From a virus: 64,000 nucleotides of DNA. Shown piece after piece: positions 17,857 to 55,428 of the stretch. Where the stretch lies: IMG/VR virus record IMGVR_UViG_3300020182_000010, positions 1-64,000 of that record; one strand, given 5' to 3'. The position numbers and the translations under genes are program-made. The notes beneath the pieces are model-generated. The model made no database searches. It was not told where the DNA came from and worked only from the letters and a program-made list of their open reading frames with translations. Positions within the stretch are counted from its first letter, which is position 1. The number at the start of each line of letters is the position of its first letter.

Positions 17857-18567
17857 CTATTTATCTGATTGGTGGATTTCATGTCTTAGTATTGCTTTTG
17901 TTATTTTAGTAATATTTTCACTTGCAACAAATGCCATAAGTTGCATATCAATATGCTCATTGCAATATATCGTATATGAATTATATGTGCTATGTCTATA
18001 TCTATAATTATAACGTGAGTTATTGGGAGTTATAATTATATTGTCCTTGGCGAATCTACGTAAATTAATATTTAAGAAATAATTGTCATTATTAGAATAA
18101 GATTCTACTAATAATGGTCCCAAATTTGTATGTAAATTATGATTATATTTCAGCATTATTTTATATCTGAATTTTTTATAATATAAATTATTCTTTATCT
18201 CAATATCATCCTCTTGCGCATCTAATGTTTCTAATAGATTATCTATAAACGGAATATGAATTTCTTGTTGTAATTCCCGATATCTTGTTGTTGCAAGTTC
18301 AAATACATCCTTATCTTCAAAATAAACATGTGTCATTGCACTATTTGTAAATTTAATACCTGGTTTACTTTTAAGAAATCTTATACAGTTTGATCTACTA
18401 TTAATATCCTCAGATGTTTCCGGATAATCGAACCACCATCCATAACCGGTTCCATTCTTATATGATTCAATAACTTCCTTAGAAGGAAAACCATACAGAC
18501 GTTTATATGATATTTTATAAGGATATTTCTTGTAAAATAGTTTAGTGGATTCGACATACTTAACCAT
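17857..18567 (-). CDS. Hypothetical protein
   Basis: 236 aa; two LF/YYKKY/FxYKI repeats; overlaps clpA stop. Confidence 0.7.
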   Translation of the reverse strand: MVKYVESTKLFYKKYPYKISYKRLYGFPSKEVIESYKNGTGYGWWFDYPETSEDINSRSNCIRFLKSKPGIKFTNSAMTHVYFEDKDVFELATTRYRELQQEIHIPFIDNLLETLDAQEDDIEIKNNLYYKKFRYKIMLKYNHNLHTNLGPLLVESYSNNDNYFLNINLRRFAKDNIIITPNNSRYNYRYRHSTYNSYTIYCNEHIDMQLMAFVASENITKITKAILRHEIHQSDK

Positions 18568-20806
18568 ATGAAAATACTAACTCATCATCTATGACTTTAA
18601 TAACTACTTTTCCACCATTCATTAGATTTCCAAATAAAACTTCTTTTGATAAAGGTTTCTTAATATGATCATTAATAACACGCTGTAAAGGTCTTGCTCC
18701 CATATCAGGTATGTACCCACGTTCACGCATCCATGCTTTTGCTCCAAGTGTTAATTCAATTACCACACCTTTTTCGGACAACATATCATTTAATTCATTA
18801 ATTGATTTATCAACAATCATATCAATATGTTCACGTTGTAGAGCAACAAATTCAACCATTGCATCTAGTCTATTTCTAAATTCAGGTGAAAAGAATTTTT
18901 TCACAGCCTGCATGCTTGCATCATTATTGTCATTATTAAATCCAATTGCCAACTTAGACTTTTGTGCAGCACCAAGATTACTAGTCATAATAAGAATAGC
19001 ATTACTAAAATCTGCCACTTTTCCAGTTGAACTTGTTAATCTACCATCATCCATAACTTGTAATAGCAAATTCATAACACTCGGATGTGCTTTTTCAACT
19101 TCATCTAATAAAATAATACAGTTTGGAGTTTCTTCTACATCATTAATAAGTTTGCCACTACCTGCGCCACCTTCAGCATGTCCCACATAACCTGGAGGTG
19201 CACCGATTAATTTAGATACACTATGCTGTTCCATATATTCACTCATATCATACTTACGAAGCGTTACATCTAAGTTGCTTGCAAGTTGGCGACATAGTTC
19301 TGTCTTCCCTGTCCCTGTTGGTCCAACAAATAAGAAACTGCCAATAGGTTTGTTGGTAGGACGCATACCTGACTTTGCAACTAAAATAGATTCTACTAAG
19401 GTACCAACTGCTTTATTTTGACCAAATAGTTTCTGCTTTATATTATGTTCTAAATTAGCATAATTGTTATTTTCTTTTGCATCTATCATATCCAATGGAA
19501 TACGAGTAATTTTTGATACTGCCTGTTCTACTGCCCCTCTGTCAATTTTATTAGTTTTATTATGTAACTTATTTCTAGCACCTGCGACATCAATAATATC
19601 GATAGCACGATCAGGATTATATTTACCATGCATATATCGTTCTGCTAAGTCAACTGCATAATCTAGTGCATCATCATCATATTCATTGCCATGAAATTCT
19701 TCATAATATTTTTTAAGACCCTTAACAATTAACTTGGTATTTTCTTTACTTGGTTGTTCTACTACAACTTTTTGGAATCTACGTTGTAACGCTCTATCCT
19801 TTTCAAAATTTTCTCTATATTCTTCACTAGTAGTGGCACCCATACAAAGTAGTTTGCCACCTGCTAATAATGGTTTTAACAAATTTGCAATATCAATATT
19901 TGAACCACCTGCAGAACCTGCTCCCATAATCATATGAATTTCATCAATGAATAGGATTACATTATCTTTTTCAGATAATTGTTCAAAAACTATTTTAGCA
20001 CGTTCTTCAAATTCTCCGCGATACTTTGTACCCGCAACCATTGCTGTTACATCCAATGAATAGACAATTTTATCTTTAAGCATATCAGGACAGTCATTAT
20101 TGACAATGTTTCTTGCCAGACCTTCAGCAATAGCAGTTTTACCAACACCTGGTTCACCTACAATTATAACATTGTTCTTTTTTCGTCTTGCTAATACTTC
20201 AGTTATTTCAAGAATTTCTTCTGTTCTGCCAATTACCGGATCAATCTTTCCTTCTGCCGCACTTTTATTTAAGTTATCACAAAAGTCTTCAAATTTTATT
20301 TGTCCTTGACTTTCTGGTCCACCCGACATTCCACGTTGTGCACTACGATGTATTGTATTTGTGAATGCATCATAAAAGTCCTTTTCAATAATACTAACTA
20401 CCTTGTCTCTACTTGCACCATGTTTCTTTAAAATATAAGAAGCATGCGAAGATGTTTCACTTAATAGAGATACTATAAGATCCTTAGGAAACATTTGCTT
20501 TCGTCCAGTGAAAATAACCTGTGTTACTGCACGATTAAAAACACGGTCAAGTGCTAAAGTTTGTCTAGGTCCCATATCATCTAGTTTTTCAACAGTAATA
20601 TCATCACGTTGTGCTAGGTTCTCTTCTAGGTCTCGAATGATATTACTATGACTGCAACTCATTTTACTCAATAATTCTAACACATCATTTTCATCCATTA
20701 GAACATACAATAAATGTTCTAAAGTTACATATTCATGTGAGAGTGACGCAGCCTTAATTATTGACTGGTCTAATGCCCAATTAACTCGATTATTATTCTT
20801 GTTCAT
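18560..20806 (-). CDS. clpA: ATP-dependent Clp protease ATP-binding subunit ClpA
   Basis: Clp N-domain (HEYVTLEHLL), Walker A GEPGVGKT and GPTGTGKT, IDEIH and LDEVEKAH, IGF loop. Confidence 0.95.
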   Translation of the reverse strand: MNKNNNRVNWALDQSIIKAASLSHEYVTLEHLLYVLMDENDVLELLSKMSCSHSNIIRDLEENLAQRDDITVEKLDDMGPRQTLALDRVFNRAVTQVIFTGRKQMFPKDLIVSLLSETSSHASYILKKHGASRDKVVSIIEKDFYDAFTNTIHRSAQRGMSGGPESQGQIKFEDFCDNLNKSAAEGKIDPVIGRTEEILEITEVLARRKKNNVIIVGEPGVGKTAIAEGLARNIVNNDCPDMLKDKIVYSLDVTAMVAGTKYRGEFEERAKIVFEQLSEKDNVILFIDEIHMIMGAGSAGGSNIDIANLLKPLLAGGKLLCMGATTSEEYRENFEKDRALQRRFQKVVVEQPSKENTKLIVKGLKKYYEEFHGNEYDDDALDYAVDLAERYMHGKYNPDRAIDIIDVAGARNKLHNKTNKIDRGAVEQAVSKITRIPLDMIDAKENNNYANLEHNIKQKLFGQNKAVGTLVESILVAKSGMRPTNKPIGSFLFVGPTGTGKTELCRQLASNLDVTLRKYDMSEYMEQHSVSKLIGAPPGYVGHAEGGAGSGKLINDVEETPNCIILLDEVEKAHPSVMNLLLQVMDDGRLTSSTGKVADFSNAILIMTSNLGAAQKSKLAIGFNNDNNDASMQAVKKFFSPEFRNRLDAMVEFVALQREHIDMIVDKSINELNDMLSEKGVVIELTLGAKAWMRERGYIPDMGARPLQRVINDHIKKPLSKEVLFGNLMNGGKVVIKVIDDELVFSYG

Positions 20807-26819: not shown

Positions 26820-26907
26820 TGGCAGACAGGGTGGGATTCGAACCCACGGAACCTCTCGGTTCGCCGGATTAGTAATCCGGTGCTTTCGGCCACTCAGCCA
26901 CCTGTCC
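26820..26907 (-). tRNA. tRNA-Ser, anticodon ACT (unusual)
   Basis: Anticodon arm CCGGA-TTACTAA-TCCGG, long variable arm, G73, encoded CCA. Confidence 0.9.
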
Positions 26908-26914
26908 ACATTCT

Positions 26915-26991
26915 TGGTCGGAGTATAAGGATTCGAACCTTAGACCTCTGCGTCCCAAACGCAGCGCACTACCAGACTGTGCTATACTCCG
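26915..26991 (-). tRNA. tRNA-Pro(TGG)
   Basis: CTGCG-TTTGGGA-CGCAG; CCA end. Confidence 0.95.
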
Positions 26992-26998
26992 AATTTAA

Positions 26999-27073
26999 TG
27001 GTATCCCGTAGGGGAATCGAACCCCTCTTTTCAGGTTGAAAACCTAACGTCCTAACCGATAGACGAACGGGAC
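26999..27073 (-). tRNA. tRNA-Glu(TTC)
   Basis: TTAGG-TTTTCAA-CCTGA; CCA end. Confidence 0.95.
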
Positions 27074-27164
27074 AAATAATCTCAAGCAGTTTATGGTCCT
27101 GCTTAGGACATTCTGGGCACCATTTGCTCAATTATTTTATAAGGGGAACAAAACCCTTTGACTA

Positions 27165-27241
27165 TGGCGCGGTTGACGGGACTCGAACCCGCGACCCTCG
27201 GCGTGACAGGCCGATACTCTAACCAACTGAGCTACAACCGC
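27165..27241 (-). tRNA. tRNA-Asp(GTC)
   Basis: TCGGC-CTGTCAC-GCCGA; CCA end. Confidence 0.95.
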
Positions 27242-27247
27242 TTGTTA

Positions 27248-27490
27248 TTATTCTCCAATGGCAAATGACAATTGACGTTCTGCATCTGCCTCTTCTTTGC
27301 GTTCTGCAATAATCATATCGACAATTTCATTAAATGAATCATAAAATTCTTCATCGTCTTTCCAGAATGAGCGACACGCAGCATATGCATCAGCATCTAC
27401 GAAATTCCAGTTGATTGAGTAATCATCATTGAGATTTTCTGATTTCTCAACTGCAGCACGGATTTCGATTTCAAGCATTGAATAGATCAT
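27248..27490 (-). CDS. Hypothetical protein
   Basis: 80 aa, GAGAG RBS, own promoter. Confidence 0.7.
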   Translation of the reverse strand: MIYSMLEIEIRAAVEKSENLNDDYSINWNFVDADAYAACRSFWKDDEEFYDSFNEIVDMIIAERKEEADAERQLSFAIGE

Positions 27491-27521
27491 TGTGATTCTC
27501 TCTCATTGTTTCTATACATAC

Positions 27522-27550
27522 TTTATAGCACTATTAAAATAGATTGTCAA
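27522..27550 (-). promoter_or_regulatory. Sigma70 promoter with extended -10
   Basis: TTGACA-17 bp (ending TGC)-TATAAA; no GANTC. Confidence 0.7.
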
Positions 27551-27566
27551 GCATTATTTTAAATTG

Positions 27567-27695
27567 TTATTCTAATCCCACGCACGGAATAATAATAGAT
27601 TGCTGGCAGTTATCTGGGTAGGCAATTGCAGCACCAAGAATAGGCAATCCTACCATAAAGAAAGTAATAATAATAAAAGATAACAATAGTTTCAT
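27567..27695 (-). CDS. Small membrane protein (42 aa)
   Basis: Own translation MKLLLSFIIITFFMVGLPILGAAIAYPDNCQQSIIIPCVGLE. Confidence 0.5.
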   Translation of the reverse strand: MKLLLSFIIITFFMVGLPILGAAIAYPDNCQQSIIIPCVGLE

Positions 27696-27712
27696 AAGTT
27701 ATAATCCTAGTT

Positions 27713-27796
27713 TGGTGGGCGACCCTGGAATCGAACCAGGCGTGCGTCTCCGCGAGGGAGTTACAGTCCCCTGCCACACCTTGCGGCCTGTCGCCC
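27713..27796 (-). tRNA. tRNA-Tyr(GTA)
   Basis: GGGGA-CTGTAAC-TCCCT, long variable arm, CCA. Confidence 0.9.
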
Positions 27797-27806
27797 ACTT
27801 TAAATT

Positions 27807-27897
27807 TGGTAGAAGTGGGTGGATTCGAACCACCTCAAAGGCGCTAATCTGGCGCAAAGAGCATATAAAACTCCTCTGACTACCAAGTCTCACTTCC
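27807..27897 (-). tRNA. Atypical tRNA, anticodon TAT (Ile), long variable arm
   Basis: Acceptor GGAAGTG/CACTTCT, T arm GGTGG-TTCGAAT-CCACC, anticodon arm GGAGT-TTTATAT-GCTCT, CCA. Confidence 0.75.
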
Positions 27898-27904
27898 GAT
27901 TTTT

Positions 27905-27981
27905 TGGTGCTCCCGGTAGGACTCGAACCTACGACCGACCCGTTATGAGCGGGTGGCTCTAACCAACTGAGCTACAGGAGC
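27905..27981 (-). tRNA. tRNA(CAT), probably Ile2 (lysidine type); elongator Met not excluded
   Basis: ACCCG-CTCATAA-CGGGT; paired 1:72, so not the initiator. Confidence 0.85.
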
Positions 27982-27989
27982 GTTATTTC

Positions 27990-28064
27990 TGGAGCGGGTA
28001 AGGAGAATCGAACTCCTGTCTAAAGGTTGGAAACCTACCGTAATAACCACTATACGATACCCGC
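27990..28064 (-). tRNA. tRNA-Gly(TCC)
   Basis: TTTCCAA loop, GCGGG start, U73, CCA. Confidence 0.95.
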
Positions 28065-28072
28065 GGTTTATT

Positions 28073-28252
28073 TTATCTTTCTACTAAAGGAGTAGCAGCC
28101 TGTGAATCATGATAGTCACCACTTGTATAGTAATCACGATACGCAACCTCTTTGACCATTATACCGTTCTTCATACGATATGTAACAATTTCTCTACGAA
28201 TGACACCAGTAGTATCAGCATCAAATGCGGCTTTAAATGGTCCATCTGCCAT
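28073..28252 (-). CDS. Small hypothetical protein (59 aa)
   Basis: Own translation MADGPFKAAFDADTTGVIRREIVTYRMKNG...; AAGGAG RBS. Confidence 0.7.
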   Translation of the reverse strand: MADGPFKAAFDADTTGVIRREIVTYRMKNGIMVKEVAYRDYYTSGDYHDSQAATPLVER

Positions 28253-28275
28253 ATTATATTCTCCTTAATAATATT

Positions 28276-28361
28276 TGGTACTCGTACCCGGACTTGAACC
28301 GGGACGCCTCAAGGGCAACAGATTTTAAGTCTGGCGCGTCTACCGATTCCGCCATACGAGC
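28276..28361 (-). tRNA. tRNA-Leu(TAA)
   Basis: CAGA-CTTAAAA-TCTG, variable arm, CCA. Confidence 0.95.
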
Positions 28362-28368
28362 ATATTAA

Positions 28369-28641
28369 TTAGATGATGTAATCATCGTGTTCATTTTCCC
28401 ATTGATTAATGGCATTTCTTAGTCCCATTGCTAACCAATCACCACCTGACATATCAAGCATTTCGCTCCATTGGTCAACAACTTCATCGATTTGTTCACG
28501 CTCTAATTCATCTGGTGAATCTACCCCAAAATGTTCCTGAATTAGTCCAAAGGCCCACTCGGTAACTTCACCTTCCAACCAATCAAGCATTTTGTGTGGA
28601 CGATGGATTTCAAATTTATCTTCACTCATGTTCGCCTCCAT
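28369..28641 (-). CDS. Hypothetical protein
   Basis: 90 aa, acidic, AGGAG RBS. Confidence 0.7.
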   Translation of the reverse strand: MEANMSEDKFEIHRPHKMLDWLEGEVTEWAFGLIQEHFGVDSPDELEREQIDEVVDQWSEMLDMSGGDWLAMGLRNAINQWENEHDDYII

Positions 28642-28654
28642 TTCTCCTTTAATT

Positions 28655-28731
28655 TGGCGATCCCTATAGGATTCGAACCTATGACCTAGTGCTTAGAAGG
28701 CACTTGCTCTATCCAGCTGAGCTAAGGAATC
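28655..28731 (-). tRNA. tRNA-Arg(TCT)
   Basis: AGTGC-CTTCTAA-GCACT; CCA. Confidence 0.95.
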
Positions 28732-32688: not shown

Positions 32689-33045
32689 TTATTTTATGAA
32701 TTGTTTTAATTCTGGTGCCTTCCAACCTTCTGGTTTTAATACCTTGCCGTCTTCACGTTTAATTACTTTGCCGGTATCTAGATTAATTTTAGCAAAGTTT
32801 GTGTTCATTACTTCCTTCCACGCCGATTCTGCATCCCAGCCAGCAGCACGAATAGCACCAATGGTAACAACCAAAATATCAACTAATGCATCAAGTTGTT
32901 CTACTTTGTCCTCAGCAACAACTGCATCTAATAATTCATTATACTCTTCATCAATTAATCCCAGATACATACGATAGTTTTCAGGTGATGATGGTTGGTC
33001 ACACGCTTCGGCAAATTTATTAATGTCTTCAAATACGTTTGTCAT
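32689..33045 (-). CDS. MazG/PRA-PH-like NTP pyrophosphohydrolase
   Basis: LIDEEYNEL...LDALVDILVV...EVMNTNFAK...REDGKVLKPEGW. Confidence 0.85.
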   Translation of the reverse strand: MTNVFEDINKFAEACDQPSSPENYRMYLGLIDEEYNELLDAVVAEDKVEQLDALVDILVVTIGAIRAAGWDAESAWKEVMNTNFAKINLDTGKVIKREDGKVLKPEGWKAPELKQFIK

Positions 33046-33279
33046 TTTCTGCTACTTTCTTTTTGTATAATTATTACATTATACATTATTTTAACGGAGT
33101 ATGCAACTACTATTTTTCATTTTATTATAATTCATTTTTTTAGAAATGATCTTGCTATAATTCCACTTTTTGTTATAATAACAATATTGTTATTTTCATC
33201 AAGTATTCGATAATATAATACTCTATGGCCTGTTTTTGTCCTATTTTCTTCTATTCGTTTCATCATATTATCTTCACCC

Positions 33280-36123
33280 TCATTTTGATAATAATACAGT
33301 ATTGCCTCCAATAGCAGTAGTATTAATACTCACGTGCTTCTCCCAAACATATGATTTTAAATAATTGGGGCCGCCAGCCTTGGGACCAGTGCCTGATAAT
33401 CCAATACCACCAAAAGGCTGTGTTTCTACAATTGCACCAATTTGATCTCTATTAATATAAATATTGCCAATATTAACATTGTTAATGATTTCTTCATAAA
33501 AAGATGCTATTCTGGAATGAATACTCATTGTTAACCCAAATTTTGTTGTATTGATATAGTCTATAATACTATCAAGTTCATCAACTTCATATTCATAAAC
33601 ATGTAGCAGAGGTCCAAATATTTCTTTATCAAAGTATTTTTTATAATCTGATACTAAATACGCACTTGGTGGAATTGTCAACGGCGGTAATTCAATACCA
33701 TTTCTTGATTTTGTTGCTATAAGTATTTCATTCTCTTCTAATACTGATATTCTATTTTGTATACTTCTAAAAGAATCACCGTCAATTACACGGGTGACAT
33801 CGGTATTTAAATCGTCACTGAATCCCATCTCTACAACACGAATAGCATTGGCCAACATTTTTAAAATATGATTAGAATTATCTTTTTGAACAAATAAAAA
33901 TCTTGTTGCACTACATCTTTGACCTGCACTATCAAATGCACCGAGTATAACATCCTTTACCAATTGTTCAGGTAAACATGTACTATCAGCAATCATACAA
34001 TTGATGCCGCCAGTCTCTGCAATAAACGGAATAATAGGTCCATCACGGTCAGCTAACACACGCTGAATACGCTTCGCAGTTTTATGTGAACCAGTAAATG
34101 TTATACCGTTAATTCGTTCATCTGCTACTGCAATCTCTGCATCTTCAGGATCACTAGGACATAATCTAATAGCATAGTCTGGTATTCCACATTCAAGCAT
34201 GCAACTGATTACAGTCTCGGCAACTCTAATTGTTTGTGGGGCAGATTTTGCTAGTACGGTATTACCAGTTAATAATGCTGCTATGATTGGTCCTACAAAA
34301 ATTGCAAGTGGAAAGTTCCACGGTGCAATAACCATCCACACTCCGTGTGGTTGATATGTAGTTGTATTACTTTCACCTGTATAACCTAATGTAATACCTT
34401 GATTATATAATGTTTCTGCTTGTTCTGCATAATATCTAATAAAATCTACGGCTTCACGAACTTCACTAATAGCATTAGAATATGTCTTATTTGCATTAAT
34501 AACTAGATTACTTGCGGCTTGTTCCATATGATCTTCTAAATGATTTGAATAATCAAGAACTAATTTCTTTCTTTCAGCAAACGTAGTTTTGCTCCATTCT
34601 TTTCTACCTTCGTCTAATATTGTAATACTATCATTCACTGATAATTGTGCAGGTACAATAAATTCGTAACTTTGTCTTCCTACTAGATTCTTAATCCACG
34701 CAGGATCAGTTAAATCATATCCACGACTATTTTTACGATCTGGATATAAATCTTTATATGTTGGTAGATTTTCTCGGTCTTTTTTCACTTCATTGAATGG
34801 ATCTACTAATTGTTGATTAAAAACAAAACTAGTGTTTGCTCCATTTTCTAATAATCTACGAACAAGATATGCAAGTAAATCTTTATATTCACCTACGGGC
34901 GCATACACTCTAACACTTGTATTGTATGTATTTCGTAGATATTCAAATAGTCCATTCCCCATACCATATAATTTTTGAAACTCAAATTCACCTCCTAGGG
35001 TTTCGTTGTAAAAGTATATGGCTGCCACGGTGAATGGATTATGTGTGGCATAAGCAGGTTTGATATACTTGGATAACATAATCTTTCTTGCACATGCTAG
35101 ATAACTTATGTCAGTATATTCCTTTCGTGTAAATACAGGATAGTGTAAGCCTTCTTGTTGTGCTATCTTTATTTCTGTATCCCAATATGCACCTTTGACT
35201 AAACGTATACATATTGATGTATTGAATTCTTCTGCAATATGTTCTAATGTTTCTATTGCCCAAAATGCACGTTTTTGATATGCTTGAACTGCGAATCCAA
35301 TTGTGTTATCTTTAAATTTATGTGTTGATAACAATTCTTCTAATACCATTATACTTATATCTAAACGCGATGCTTCCTCAGCATCAATAAACATTGTGGT
35401 GTTTTTATCTTCGCAAAGTCTGGCAATTGCCGCTAATTTTGGGACTAACTGATGTATTACATCAGCATGATTTCTTAACTCATATCTTGGATGAATAGCA
35501 CTTAGTTTAATACTAATGCTATCTTCAAAGTGTGCTGCAGCCTGTATATATTTTTCGTAGTATGCATTCGCATCTTCCCAATTTGTTGCTGCTTCGCCCA
35601 GCATATCAACTGAGTATGTGTATGATTTATCTACTGCAGTTTTTGCGGCTTCAATGGTTTCAGCCATTACAAATATATTACCCATTCTTTTAACAGATTC
35701 TTTAATAATCTTACGAACTGTGGGCCAACCCAATCTACTAATTAAATTATTATATGCTGCAAAACTCTGGGCATTAGTTAATACTTTGCCACACAAAGTT
35801 GCATAGAAACTATTTTGTGATAAAAGATTCCAATCAGCATTTGTTAGTTTTTCTTTAATTAATTTATCTTGTGTTTTTTTATCAGGTGTCCGTAGTAAAC
35901 ATTCACATAAAGTCATTAACGCAATGCCTTCATTGCCTGATAATTCATATGCAACCATAAGTTGATGTATCATACTAGATTCATTGAATGCAGAATTAAT
36001 TACATTTGATGTTTCTAATATTTCGGCACGGTCTTTTTTTGTAAGTCTTGCGGCAAGCATTAATTTTGGAATTAATTCTAGTTCATTCATTCTATAATAT
36101 ATATTGTGTTGATAAATTTTCAT
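33280..36123 (-). CDS. putA: Bifunctional proline dehydrogenase / P5C dehydrogenase
   Basis: SIKLSA, IDAEE, VQAYQKR, RLVKGAYWD, ATHN, YLVRRLLENGANTSF; PWNFP, FTGS, AETGG, SAGQRCSA, EIFGP, QPFGGIGLSGTGPKAGG. Confidence 0.97.
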   Translation of the reverse strand: MKIYQHNIYYRMNELELIPKLMLAARLTKKDRAEILETSNVINSAFNESSMIHQLMVAYELSGNEGIALMTLCECLLRTPDKKTQDKLIKEKLTNADWNLLSQNSFYATLCGKVLTNAQSFAAYNNLISRLGWPTVRKIIKESVKRMGNIFVMAETIEAAKTAVDKSYTYSVDMLGEAATNWEDANAYYEKYIQAAAHFEDSISIKLSAIHPRYELRNHADVIHQLVPKLAAIARLCEDKNTTMFIDAEEASRLDISIMVLEELLSTHKFKDNTIGFAVQAYQKRAFWAIETLEHIAEEFNTSICIRLVKGAYWDTEIKIAQQEGLHYPVFTRKEYTDISYLACARKIMLSKYIKPAYATHNPFTVAAIYFYNETLGGEFEFQKLYGMGNGLFEYLRNTYNTSVRVYAPVGEYKDLLAYLVRRLLENGANTSFVFNQQLVDPFNEVKKDRENLPTYKDLYPDRKNSRGYDLTDPAWIKNLVGRQSYEFIVPAQLSVNDSITILDEGRKEWSKTTFAERKKLVLDYSNHLEDHMEQAASNLVINANKTYSNAISEVREAVDFIRYYAEQAETLYNQGITLGYTGESNTTTYQPHGVWMVIAPWNFPLAIFVGPIIAALLTGNTVLAKSAPQTIRVAETVISCMLECGIPDYAIRLCPSDPEDAEIAVADERINGITFTGSHKTAKRIQRVLADRDGPIIPFIAETGGINCMIADSTCLPEQLVKDVILGAFDSAGQRCSATRFLFVQKDNSNHILKMLANAIRVVEMGFSDDLNTDVTRVIDGDSFRSIQNRISVLEENEILIATKSRNGIELPPLTIPPSAYLVSDYKKYFDKEIFGPLLHVYEYEVDELDSIIDYINTTKFGLTMSIHSRIASFYEEIINNVNIGNIYINRDQIGAIVETQPFGGIGLSGTGPKAGGPNYLKSYVWEKHVSINTTAIGGNTVLLSK

Positions 36124-36662
36124 AACCGTTTACTAGCCTTACTTCTTTTAAATAGTACCTTTTCAATATACCGATTATGGCGAAGTATGTCTAAATTTAT
36201 GTCAAACATCGCACGTATTTCGCCCATTGTTTTATTTTTATAAGGGTCAAAATCCACTTGATGTATATTCTTAGTTCGACGGGTCTTACCATAAATAATA
36301 CCCATATCAAACGCTATTAGTTCTCTTTCGCCAAATCGATATATTTTTGGAAATATATTCGATGCATAGTATTTATATAATGCAACATGCCAGTTTTTTA
36401 ATGACGTTGCGTTACCCATTGTGTAACCTATAACAAATGCTTCATCTTGATTTAATAATCCTCTGCCCAATAATGCGTGAATGCAATCGTGTGATTCTAA
36501 GCATATTGCGCCTGGTAAACTAAATGGTGATTTAGGATTTTCTATTATCTTTACATACCAACTTATGTCTATCGATTCACTACCCGGTAAAGTATTCAAT
36601 ACAGAAATGAGAGTGTCATTACCGTTTTCTATTCCAGGATTCCAATCACTGTAGTGTAACAT
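36120..36662 (-). CDS. Coq4-like protein (HDxxH...E motif)
   Basis: LESHDCIHALLGRGLLNQDEAFVIGY; ATGA overlap with putA. Confidence 0.55.
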   Translation of the reverse strand: MLHYSDWNPGIENGNDTLISVLNTLPGSESIDISWYVKIIENPKSPFSLPGAICLESHDCIHALLGRGLLNQDEAFVIGYTMGNATSLKNWHVALYKYYASNIFPKIYRFGERELIAFDMGIIYGKTRRTKNIHQVDFDPYKNKTMGEIRAMFDINLDILRHNRYIEKVLFKRSKASKRL

Positions 36663-36680
36663 AATAATATTTAGTCAGAA

Positions 36681-36783
36681 TAAAAAGAACCCGACTACCT
36701 AAGTAGCCGGGCCAAGTTTGCGAAGAGGACTATAGAGTGGATAATCCACCCTAAAGTACAGAGAAATCAATCTCTGCACTAGT
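36681..36783 (-). ncRNA. Candidate small RNA with own late promoter and terminator
   Basis: TAAATA, two hairpins, linker, CCCGGCTAC-TTAG-GTAGTCGGG plus T tract; no convincing ORF. Confidence 0.5.
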
Positions 36784-36814
36784 ATTTAAAATAAAATGAT
36801 ATAAAGATAACTAT

Positions 36815-52260: not shown

Positions 52261-53352
52261 TTACCAACCAATTCTTTCCCAAGGAACATCTTTGTTACCA
52301 AAGTGTCCATATACACAATTTTCACTGTATTTAGTATAGTTAAATAAATCAAATCTATCAATAATTCCTCTAGGAGTTAGATCAATACTTTCTTTAATAA
52401 ACTTTTGAATACTACGATTATGTCCGTTCGAATCAACATAGATACTTGTAGGTTCTTTAATACCGATAGCATAACTAAGTTGTATACTGCACCAATCTGC
52501 CATATTATCTGCCACAACATTCTTGGCAAGCCAACGAGCCATATATGCAGCGGAACGATCTACTTTAGTAGGATCTTTGCCACTAAAAGCACCACCACCG
52601 TGCGGAGCAAATCCGCCATAGGTATCAACAATAATTTTTCGTCCAGTAACACCGGCATCACCATCAGGACCACCTATAACAAAATTGCCAGTGGGATTAA
52701 TATGCCAGATTGTATCGTCATCGATCAAATCTCCCATGGCATGATGTGCGGCTTGTTTTGCAATTATTCTTGCTGCTTCTATTTCATTTTCTGTGTGTTG
52801 AGTACTAATAACAATTTGATCTGCGCGTTTTACTATACCACCTTCATATTGCATACTAACCTGTGATTTTGCATCTGGTCCTAATATACTGTCTAAATTT
52901 CTAACTTCTTTTAATTCTTTAAGAATTTTGTGAGCATAATAAATCGGGGCTGGCATATATGAATCATTATCATTACAAGCATAACCAAACATGATGCCTT
53001 GGTCACCAGCACCGAAGTTATCAGTACCTAAGGCAATATCTGAACTTTGTGAATGAATTTCATTATAGATTTTTAGTTTGTCCCAATGAAATCCCTTCTG
53101 TTCGTAACCGATATCACGAATTTTATTACGCACAATTTCCTTGACAGTATCTTTGCTTACGTTAAAGTTTTTCACTTCGCCAGCCAATGTCACATGATTC
53201 GTAGTCACAAGAGTTTCTACCGCAATACGAGTTGTTTCATCACCATTAGCAAGCCCCGCATCTACTAATGCATCTGAAATTTGATCTGCAACTTTATCTG
53301 GATGACCGTCACTAACACTTTCACTTGTAAAAATATAATTTCCTGGTTTCAT
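52261..53352 (-). CDS. metK: S-adenosylmethionine synthetase
   Basis: FTSESVSDGHPDK, GAGDQG, GGPDGDAGVTGRKIIVDTYGG, GGGAFSGKDPTKVDRS. Confidence 0.97.
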   Translation of the reverse strand: MKPGNYIFTSESVSDGHPDKVADQISDALVDAGLANGDETTRIAVETLVTTNHVTLAGEVKNFNVSKDTVKEIVRNKIRDIGYEQKGFHWDKLKIYNEIHSQSSDIALGTDNFGAGDQGIMFGYACNDNDSYMPAPIYYAHKILKELKEVRNLDSILGPDAKSQVSMQYEGGIVKRADQIVISTQHTENEIEAARIIAKQAAHHAMGDLIDDDTIWHINPTGNFVIGGPDGDAGVTGRKIIVDTYGGFAPHGGGAFSGKDPTKVDRSAAYMARWLAKNVVADNMADWCSIQLSYAIGIKEPTSIYVDSNGHNRSIQKFIKESIDLTPRGIIDRFDLFNYTKYSENCVYGHFGNKDVPWERIGW

Positions 53353-53368
53353 TATAATCTTTCTATTT

Positions 53369-53779
53369 TTATTTTTTTGCACTGCATACTAATTCACGCA
53401 GTTTACTTGAACTAAATCTATGATCCCGTTCATTGAAATATATTTCAATATCTCTTTTTTTACAAATATCTCTACCAGTAAAATCTTTATCACGATATTC
53501 TACTCCTAGAATGCGTATATCAATATGCATACCACTAAGAATATCTTCCAAATCTTTTTCGGTTGCATATGGAATAATTTCATCCACATACTTACACGCC
53601 CGTAATTGTAGATATCGTTCGACCACAGTTTGGACGGGTTTATTTTTTGTATCTCTGTCAATTGATGGATCTATTTGCAATCCCACAATTAAATAATCAC
53701 AATGTGATTTTGCTTCTTCTAACATAAGAGTATGTCCTGCATGTAGTAAGTCAAATGTTGATGCTGTGAAACCTATCAT
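53369..53779 (-). CDS. Cytidylyltransferase (TagD/RfaE-like)
   Basis: FDLLHAGH, YLIVGL, YVDEI, RDHRFSSSKLR. Confidence 0.88.
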   Translation of the reverse strand: MIGFTASTFDLLHAGHTLMLEEAKSHCDYLIVGLQIDPSIDRDTKNKPVQTVVERYLQLRACKYVDEIIPYATEKDLEDILSGMHIDIRILGVEYRDKDFTGRDICKKRDIEIYFNERDHRFSSSKLRELVCSAKK

Positions 53780-54258: not shown

Positions 54259-55428
54259 CTATATTTTAGTAGTAGAATTTGCATATACTGAATTAAATTG
54301 ATTATTTACTCTAACAAATGTTGTACACTTTGTCAACTGTTTTAATTTTTGAGCGCCCGCATATGTACAAGTTGATCTAATACCTCCAAGAATATCTTGT
54401 AGTGTGCTTTCAACTTCTCCACGATATGGTACGAGAACTTCTCTGCCTTCACTACTTCTATAATTCTTTAGTCCACCAAAGTGCTTTGTGTTGGCTGCGT
54501 CACTGCTCATACCATAAAACTGTACAAATCGCTTTTCTTTATATACTGGTTCATAAAAATTATCATCGGTTTTGATAACTTCATCTGTTTCGTAAATCTT
54601 TGTTATTACTTCGCCACCGCCCTCAACATGTCCAGCAAGCATACCACCTAGCATCACAAAATCAGCACCAGCAGCAAATGCTTTAGCAATATCACCTGGA
54701 CAAGTACAACCGCCGTCAGCGATAATGTGACCACCAAGCCCGTGAGCAGCATCGGCACATTCAATGACCGCTGAGAGTTGCGGATATCCCACCCCAGTTT
54801 GAATACGTGTTGTACAAACACTTCCAGGGCCGATGCCCACTTTAACAATATCTGCACCATTTAAAATTAACTCTTGTGTTTGATCCGCAGTGACAACATT
54901 GCCAGCAATGATTACAATATTAGGATATAATAGTCTAAAGTCGGCAACAAAATTAGTAAATCGTTCACTGTAACCATTAGCCACATCAATGCATACATAT
55001 TTTAAATTAGAATTAACGTGTGTATGCACACTTTTAAATTTTTTTAAATCTTGTTCACCAATCCCAATACTCATTGCAATATGTTCTTTATATTTTGAAT
55101 TTGAATTGAAAAATTCAATTAATTCATCAGAACTATATGTTTTAACCAAGCAAGTAAAAACGCCTTGTTCTGCTAAAGTAGTTGCCATTGCAAATGTACC
55201 AACTCCATCCATATTTGCTGCCATAATTGGTATACCATCAAAATCGGATTCAACATATGGACCCGCTGGATATCCAGAAGGTAGAACATCAATGTTTAAT
55301 AACGGAGAATAGTTTCGAAAAATAAATTCTCTGTTTAAATCAACATCTTTTCGTGAACTAAGTATTGATCTTTTAGGCCGAATAAGAACATCACTATAAT
55401 CAAGTAATACTTCATTTTCGATACGCAT
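54259..55428 (-). CDS. guaC: GMP reductase
   Basis: [55 protein letters not shown]. Confidence 0.95.

Follow-up and report, generated by a model that had tools for sequence, protein, structure and literature searches.

The first 64 kb (64,000 nucleotides, here called the window) of the single 155,152-bp IMG/VR record IMGVR_UViG_3300020182_000010 encode a complete PutA, the bifunctional proline dehydrogenase (PRODH) and pyrroline-5-carboxylate (P5C, glutamate-semialdehyde) dehydrogenase (P5CDH). Comparison with related loci shows that a lineage of T4-related jumbo phages with genomes of ~340-370 kb has long carried its own complete, minimalist PutA. In the sub-lineage of the window, a gene for a protein of 180 residues, here called X, is placed between a conserved, probable small-RNA gene and putA, and is translationally coupled to the latter. 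PutA oxidizes proline to glutamate, whereby the flavin of PRODH delivers electrons to quinone and P5CDH yields NADH. Auxiliary metabolic genes (AMGs) through which phages secure energy and nitrogen include those for photosynthesis or carbon metabolism in cyanophages. A first-pass annotation, made from the sequence alone, had proposed that putA and a gene with a Coq4-type metal motif form a late-expressed auxiliary module of two genes that burns host proline.

The putA reading frame was translated over 947 codons without a stop. Pfam scans placed Pro_dh at residues 159-434 (E 2e-79), Aldedh at 499-931 (E 6e-85) and the alpha domain, misleadingly named 'Pro_dh-DNA_bdg', at 52-151. The NCBIfam model for bifunctional PutA (NF008869) was passed with 998.4 bits at a cut-off of 747. 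The model for trifunctional PutA with a ribbon-helix-helix (RHH) domain (NF008772) was missed with 784.6 bits at a cut-off of 1750; as this lies far below the cut-off, the protein has no DNA-binding domain, which agrees with the first reading of the sequence. The best relative of solved structure is the Bradyrhizobium enzyme (BjPutA, 3HAZ), with residues 10-946 of the phage protein aligned to 14-998 (E 1e-199) and the phage protein beginning at the position of BjPutA residue 14. Given this end-to-end alignment and the failure of the RHH model, we therefore assign it to the minimalist type-A PutA proteins. In an alignment of 43 viral and cellular PutA sequences, the conserved FAD- and proline-binding residues K206, D247, Y407, R422/R423 and E426 of PRODH are invariant, as are the catalytic cysteine C737 (in SAGQRCSA), the general base E703 and the oxyanion asparagine N603 of P5CDH. 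The domain matches, the NF008869 score and these residues bear out the intact PRODH and P5CDH motifs claimed before, and with both active sites conserved, full conversion to glutamate is thus probably conserved as well. The ratio of non-synonymous to synonymous divergence (dN/dS) of putA against its relatives is 0.11-0.17. This PutA is a genuine phage gene product of full length, and apparently functional.

Nine IMG/VR loci carry PutA proteins that are 64-99% identical to that of the window. In a collection of 5.8 billion proteins, ~70 PutA clusters were found at 63-93% identity, all of ~947 residues, followed by cellular sequences at no more than 44%. In a FastTree phylogeny of 129 rows, 76 putatively viral PutA rows lie on one side of a branch with a support of 100 and a stem of 0.67, and five loci that are phage by context (L004, L006, L007, L008 and L012) are dispersed over this clade. 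On scaffolds of 338 kb and 472 kb, the gene order is still putA, MazG, ATE_C, DUF6614, PolIII-alpha fragment and Cpn10-like gene, with unannotated genes in between, and the nine IMG/VR loci share their synteny with two European Nucleotide Archive (ENA) scaffolds. The phylogeny and neighbourhood survey that had been proposed as a check thus yielded one viral clade with synteny kept among relatives. The clade branch, the identity gap to cells and the dN/dS values together indicate that the viral PutA is an old gene under selection. Its sister group, at 43% identity, is likewise found in a phage-like contig, from a lake (L101, 6595-10832), where putA is preceded directly by a separate gene for an aldehyde dehydrogenase of 467 residues and, at a greater distance, by a MazG gene; neither X nor the RNA element is present at this locus. 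Among the 50,697 phage records of INPHARED no true phage PutA was found, and a megablast search with the locus gave no match. By tblastn, two of these records cover at least 80% of PutA, both of them 'Acinetobacter phage MD-2021a' contigs, which we read as bacterial given their puuC, gabD and astD genes. The literature searched contained no report of a phage PutA, in line with the earlier remark that it is no usual phage AMG; the nearest mention was of a putative proline dehydrogenase encoded by giant viruses of haptophytes (PMC11953307).

The record has a GC content of 35%, with ~190 of its 216 open reading frames (ORFs) on one strand, and encodes tail fibres, a virion structural protein, a clamp loader, a Lon-like protease, a terminase, a ribonucleotide reductase (RNR), DnaB-like and other helicases, and ten tRNAs. 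Among jumbo myoviruses, PA5oct, Atu_ph07 and Phosso have terminases that share 51-55% identity with that of this record. As CheckV rates the completeness of this record at 42% and that of a 342-kb relative at 92%, the full genome is put at ~370 kb, and the window belongs to a T4-related jumbo phage of that size. The GC content of putA is 0.333 and that of its third codon positions (GC3) 0.185, with 0.352 for the genome; by these values, and in keeping with the phage flanks and AT-rich codons described before, the composition of putA fits the phage and no cellular donor. As is asked of an AMG, putA is a metabolic gene inside a bona fide phage genome, is kept in relatives, and is no end fragment of host DNA. 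The stretch recurs in near-identical form in 16 or more runs, which belong to no fewer than 7 estuarine or marine studies; the habitats of the lineage are marine, estuarine and lake water, and in one marine metagenome it reaches a depth of ~190x.

Directly upstream of putA, X contains SHDCIHALLGRGLLNQDE, an exact HDxxH-x11-E motif and the HDCIH-x11-E seen in the first reading. X matched nothing in Pfam, NCBIfam or PHROG scans, and sequence-profile searches of the Protein Data Bank (PDB) gave only chance matches (E at least 0.37). The well-conserved family to which it belongs falls into 173 clusters when grouped at 90% identity and has 434 representatives at the 50% level, every named one of which is 'hypothetical'; dN/dS of X is 0.03-0.06. 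Of the motif residues, H58, H62 and E74 never vary among 47 family members, and D59 is kept in at least 90% of them; further invariant positions are W7, P9, E41, P43, S45, G66-L69, Q72-F76, Y108, E167, R179 and L180. An AlphaFold (AF2) model computed from these 47 sequences is all-helical and of high confidence, with a predicted local distance difference test score (pLDDT) of 91.5. The top two Foldseek matches of this model are the only two crystal structures of the Coq4 family, 6E12 and 3MSQ. With VIA-align, the same two were the sole chains to reach a Z-score of 5 among 48,161 PDB chains, at Z 7.6 for 6E12 (root-mean-square deviation (rmsd) 4.6, 121 aligned residues) and 7.0 for 3MSQ (rmsd 4.8, 122 aligned); the next chain had 3.9. 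For profile-profile comparison, a Coq4 profile was built from the three PF05019 proteins of an Anabaena genome and widened to 32 cyanobacterial Coq4 proteins; the hhalign probabilities were first 94.7% and then 96.9% (E 1.5e-10). In this alignment, H58, D59, H62 and E74 of X stand without gaps opposite the Coq4 invariants H105, D106, H109 and E121. In Coq4, this motif binds a metal beside a hydrophobic tunnel and is required for the oxidative C1 decarboxylation in coenzyme Q (CoQ) synthesis (PMC10680789). The X-Coq4 alignment extends over chain residues 80-216 in the structures and over template columns 109-221 of 257 in hhalign; X has just ~40 residues ahead of the aligned core and does not show the full-length Coq4 architecture with its N-terminal third. 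The hhalign result, the aligned motif and the specific structure matches place X in the Coq4 superfamily as a distant relative with a shorter N-terminus; it is not a Coq4 orthologue. The Coq4 comparison proposed for this gene thus succeeded by hhalign and by fold and failed with the Pfam Coq4 hidden Markov model (HMM). Since a Coq4 fold match exists, the outcome named beforehand as refuting the first-pass annotation, namely neither such a match nor co-occurrence with putA in relatives, did not arise. As an observation on the family, many longer proteins of 350-600 residues (P0248, P0253, P0254, P0268 and similar) end in the Coq4-like domain, which follows repetitive N-terminal regions that Pfam does not match; Pfam scans of ten longer X-domain proteins gave nothing informative in the extra regions, apart from HATPase_c in one protein of 707 residues.

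In the phages of this sub-lineage, X immediately precedes putA. The overlap of the two reads TTATGA, in which the stop TGA of X shares bases with the start ATG of putA as first described, and it is retained although synonymous divergence (dS) among the loci is 0.34-2.2. Among 80 bacterial X loci, putA is the commonest identifiable neighbour (13 loci), and 12 of these 13 are from Cellvibrionaceae or related Gammaproteobacteria. In these 12 loci the order is reversed, with putA followed by X after a spacer of 7-25 nt, and the pair forms a unit of its own, flanked by ruvA and ruvC/yebC/aspS, which lie on the other strand. The remaining locus, in a metagenome-assembled genome (MAG) of Rickettsiales, has X and putA as convergent neighbours. 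Two viral contigs add further arrangements, putA followed by a distant X homologue in the IMG/VR contig L109, and a monofunctional PRODH of 277 residues, a PF10014 2OG-Fe dioxygenase, an ORF and then a distant X homologue in L117 (2950-5546). PRODH is encoded by 46 of the 50 X-bearing genomes (92%). In an even sample of one class, it was found in 86 of 151 genomes, a tally that includes one unpublished genome (G082), and in 4/4 of the X carriers there. Set against 82 of 147 genomes without X, 46 of 50 corresponds to an odds ratio of 9 (Fisher p 1e-6, uncorrected for phylogeny). As a side observation, L006 pairs a PutA of the type of the window and L002 (dN 0.063) with an X of the L004 type (dN 0.107), a mosaic that suggests recombination inside the module between sub-lineages.

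The spacer of 150 nt upstream of X is 93% identical among relatives with a synonymous divergence of 0.34-2.2, and folds into three hairpins with -46.5 kcal/mol (z -6.5). Across nine sequences, 94% of the cells are paired and 18 of 30 pairs have changed on both sides, with slid controls at ~42%. The single-stranded UAGUCCUCUUCGCNAACU is invariant in the element. With a covariance model built from it, the RNA was located ahead of putA in all members of the clade that were examined, whether or not they have X, and in L012 and L102 the position of the TTTAAATA box ahead of the element is occupied by GTAAATA. No Rfam family reached its gathering score; the sub-threshold matches were NmsRb with 27.8 bits and mmgR with 16.5 bits. 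A search of the window for the complement of the seed returned only the RNA gene itself and no phage target. With a candidate promoter box of its own, an intrinsic terminator, covarying stems and a conserved single-stranded seed, the element has the sequence features of a small RNA (sRNA), and is probably a phage sRNA gene with a seed resembling an anti-Shine-Dalgarno sequence. Separately, in the relatives without X (L102, 5703-6000), ~300 nt of non-coding DNA lie between the RNA element and putA, and contain further NATAAATA boxes.

The consensus of T4-type late promoters is TATAAATA at about -10. Throughout this genome, many genes, among them those for tail fibres and virion proteins, have a NATAAATA box 19-40 nt upstream. 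The box ahead of X is ACTAAATA in the window, with its TAAATA core at 36673-36668 conserved in relatives, and AATAAATA in L004 and L006; the bases between the terminator and the box vary. Where relatives lack X, putA has a GATAAATA box to itself: in L102 the box stands 27 nt ahead of the ATG, and in L012 it abuts the called TTG start. The short distance to the ATG of X and the lack of a Shine-Dalgarno (SD) sequence imply a leaderless mRNA for the X-putA pair; with the conserved box and the boxes found genome-wide, a late-type leaderless transcript is plausible but unproven. Of the TAAATA late promoter described earlier, the box and its conservation stand, and the label 'late promoter' has to be qualified, since the match is 6/8 and the spacing atypical. 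Contigs from three metatranscriptome studies cover putA, some of them spanning its junctions. They are a weak hint of expression, as DNA can occur in RNA libraries; they leave some bins uncovered and give no start, end, strand or level, and therefore do not settle early versus late expression or the operon structure. By eye, four other genes of G000, encoding an exonuclease, a DnaB-like helicase, a primase and a UvsW-like helicase (gene starts 112781, 123191, 126844 and 134824, all on the minus strand), have TTGAC-type -35 boxes and -10 boxes that end 6 nt before the ATG without an SD, a leaderless design. The features of the locus are collected in Table 1.

Table 1. Features of the putA locus, with positions in the window.
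Feature	Position	Strand	Remarks
MazG-like pyrophosphohydrolase gene	32689..33045	-	Kept as downstream neighbour of putA in the clade; same in L012 and L102
putA, bifunctional proline dehydrogenase / P5C (glutamate-semialdehyde) dehydrogenase, 947 aa	33280..36123	-	Minimalist, without RHH or C-terminal domain
ATGA overlap of X stop and putA start (translational coupling)	36120..36123	-	Kept in L002-L006
X, 180-aa Coq4-superfamily protein, unnamed family	36120..36662	-	HDxxH-x11-E (H58, D59, H62, E74)
ACTAAATA box, candidate late-type promoter of a leaderless transcript	36668..36675	-	5 nt before the X ATG, no Shine-Dalgarno
Conserved structured RNA, ~107 nt, three hairpins	36679..36785	-	Last hairpin is an intrinsic terminator, 36713-36688
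TTTAAATA box, candidate promoter	36783..36790	-	Just upstream of RNA hairpin 1; invariant in alignment A3

In the explanation that we prefer, the phage PutA would oxidize host proline to glutamate during infection; electrons from the FAD of its PRODH would enter the quinone pool of the membrane, and NADH would arise at the P5CDH step, so that the phage would gain energy as well as glutamate nitrogen and carbon for replicating its ~370-kb genome. The X-putA pair would probably be expressed from its own T4-late-like TAAATA promoter as a leaderless mRNA. The weakest step concerns X, which is most likely an optional accessory of proline oxidation because genomes unrelated to one another repeatedly show a link between its family and PRODH genes. 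Our best guess is a metal-dependent helper that handles a lipid or quinone at the PRODH/quinone step, and not an enzyme of ubiquinone synthesis. Taken as a whole, this account of a proline-oxidizing phage PutA with an optional helper of Coq4 fold deserves a confidence a little above even. A bolder form of it is tentative at best and somewhat doubtful: the X family would be an unrecognized optional PRODH accessory, a pared-down metalloprotein of Coq4 fold that links PutA/PRODH to the membrane quinone pool or processes a lipid or quinone by-product, is used by Cellvibrionaceae and some Rickettsiales, and was captured by jumbo phages, with sRNA, X and putA acting as a late-expressed module that redirects host proline.

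Several observations weigh against this explanation. X is not upstream of putA in the deeper phage branches (L007, L008, L012 and L102), and the 342-kb relative rated 92% complete has putA and no copy of X anywhere. X as an obligate partner of the phage PutA was rejected on these grounds; it is thus an accessory gained by one sub-lineage and not a required subunit. Of the two-gene module first proposed, coupling and co-occurrence in relatives therefore hold, and obligate pairing does not. In bacteria, 67 of the 80 X loci do not adjoin putA, and X is rare (4 of the 151 sampled genomes), which speaks against an obligate X-PutA link; PRODH is common regardless of X (57% background), and the co-occurrence statistic is phylogenetically non-independent. 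Some copies of X lie beside a TPR gene, and a second recurrent context has the order NMT1/OmpA-like, VWA, OmpA-like, X, XpaC-like (PF10112), TelA; this cluster, of stress-response type, occurs in Alphaproteobacteria and in two IMG/VR contigs (L108, 1844-7387, and L110; bacterial loci L039, L041, L050, L069 and L073). As for the fold, a Z-score of 7-8 in a helical protein could by itself mean a common arrangement only, X has nothing to match the first ~80 residues of the solved Coq4-family chains, and Pfam Coq4 (PF05019) did not detect X at E-values up to 0.1, or up to 10 in the phage record. Finally, ACTAAATA agrees with the T4 late consensus at only 6/8 positions and lies atypically close to the ATG.

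Among the rival explanations, one is an artefact, in which assembly wrongly fused a bacterial putA region with phage DNA or the contig comes from a cell. Host DNA can indeed be present in IMG/VR records, and the sole INPHARED records with PutA matches of at least 80% query cover are the Acinetobacter contigs that we read as bacterial. In the present case, 0-difference contigs from an independent DNA run at ~190x span both the X/putA junction (35854-36312) and the 3' border of putA (32941-33364), which answers the earlier call for coverage across the junctions. Because contigs from independent runs span both junctions, the locus is not a chimera, and a chimeric assembly was rejected in view of these bridging contigs and because at least 16 runs, from no fewer than 7 studies, show the same junctions. 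As the synteny is moreover kept in contigs up to 472 kb, the composition is phage-like and the identity to cellular PutA does not exceed 44%, we consider an artefact effectively refuted already. A different reading accepts the gene and changes its purpose: PutA would mainly manipulate host physiology, by draining the osmolyte proline, with effects on turgor or lysis timing, or by making flavin-derived reactive oxygen species (ROS) or redox signals. PutA-driven peroxide signalling in E. coli offers a precedent; compatible solutes matter in the estuarine and marine habitats of the lineage, and putA adjoins a putative regulatory sRNA. Yet PRODH alone would suffice as a proline drain, and both active sites are conserved, and thus presumably the full conversion to glutamate, so we hold host manipulation as the main purpose to be unlikely.

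The other two rivals concern X. Were it a true Coq4 orthologue, the phage would boost ubiquinone synthesis (C1 decarboxylation/hydroxylation) and so supply the electron acceptor of PutA, and the residue-by-residue alignment of HDxxH-x11-E, the specificity of the fold match for Coq4 structures and the catalytic need of Coq4 for this very motif (PMC10680789) would all be accounted for. PF05019, however, misses X in six X-carrying genomes even by per-genome E-values; in five X-bearing genomes searched at E <= 0.01, the sole matches, three in number, were in Anabaena, on contigs that do not carry its X copy. The ~80 unmatched residues at the start of the solved chains and the lack of any ubi or coq genes in the X neighbourhoods inspected point the same way. 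By record titles, carriers of X include Thermochlorobacter (Chlorobi-like), Planctomycetes, Aquimarina (Bacteroidota), Dactylosporangium (Actinomycetota) and Anabaena, besides Proteobacteria. We take the first five of these lineages to use menaquinone or plastoquinone and not ubiquinone; a role of X in ubiquinone synthesis, as considered in the first-pass annotation, is therefore unlikely, the more so for a remote Coq4 relative. With no PF05019 match, a shorter N-terminus and carriers presumably using other quinones, X as a Coq4 orthologue was rejected, and we rate it as quite improbable. As to what X does, the main rival holds that its function has no bearing on PutA and is, for example, the handling of membrane or redox stress, with the coupling a by-product of tight packing at an insertion hot spot. 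The many PutA-carrying relatives without X, the predominance of bacterial copies not linked to putA, the recurrence of the TelA/XpaC/VWA/OmpA context in Alphaproteobacteria and two IMG/VR contigs, and another viral X copy that adjoins ThyX would all suit such a function. Against this stand the linkage to PRODH in at least four unrelated arrangements with differing orders and very short spacers, the presence of PRODH in 92% of X-bearing genomes, and the ATGA overlap kept at a dS of 0.34-2.2. We regard an unrelated function as rather unlikely on balance, and retain the optional accessory of proline oxidation as the preferred role of X.

Elsewhere in the window, further host-type metabolic genes of this phage encode a complete S-adenosylmethionine (SAM) synthetase with all three MetK domains (52261-53382, minus strand) and a protein of the IMPDH/GMP-reductase family (54259-55428, minus strand). 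A protein of 748 residues (18560-20806, minus strand) matches the PHROG family 'ATP-dependent protease' (phrog_4871, E 1e-255), and the ten tRNAs, for Ser, Pro, Glu, Asp, Tyr, Ile, Met, Gly, Leu and Arg, are clustered at 26820-28731 on the same strand.

PutA is a textbook respiratory flavoenzyme, and its gene proves here to be long established, diverse and strongly conserved in jumbo phages of an abundant lineage. In natural waters, infection may thus divert proline, which serves as osmolyte and amino acid alike, towards energy and glutamate. The unannotated X family, with hundreds of members, gains a testable hypothesis and would extend the Coq4 fold beyond quinone biosynthesis; if X does modulate the coupling of PRODH to quinone, it would be a new component of a well-studied enzyme system. 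The conserved, probable sRNA beside putA offers a handle on phage-encoded riboregulation.

Compared with known systems, the phage putA resembles the usual AMGs in being a host-type enzyme gene among phage genes, conserved throughout its lineage and under purifying selection, and differs from them in that no report of a phage PutA was found in the literature and none among the 50,697 phage records. The box ahead of X shares with T4 late promoters its conserved TAAATA core, and the genome as a whole the NATAAATA motif 19-40 nt upstream of structural and other genes; unlike these, ACTAAATA lies only 5 nt from the X ATG, with no SD. With the Coq4 family (PF05019; eukaryotic COQ4, cyanobacterial Alr8543 / Npun02000094, PDB 6E12 and 3MSQ), X has in common the all-helical fold, the metal motif aligned residue for residue and a profile-profile probability of 96.9%. 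It is set apart by its own invariants WNPG, ENPxSP, GRGLLxQDEAF and a C-terminal SxRL, by partner genes that are PRODH/putA or TelA/XpaC and not CoQ genes, by evading the Coq4 HMM, and by occurring in organisms that presumably make no ubiquinone. PutA itself has the domain order of BjPutA (3HAZ, 1001 residues), namely arm/alpha, PRODH barrel, linker and P5CDH; the two align end to end (E 1e-199), share the FAD/proline-site and the Cys/Glu/Asn catalytic residues, and have neither an RHH nor a C-terminal ALDH-like domain, the phage-encoded protein being ~50 residues shorter. From the type-A PutA proteins of cells, it is distinguished by an identity of no more than 44% to any that was found, by its own clade of 76 clusters, by the extreme preference of its gene for A or T at third codon positions (AT3), and by the phage sRNA-like gene ahead of it.

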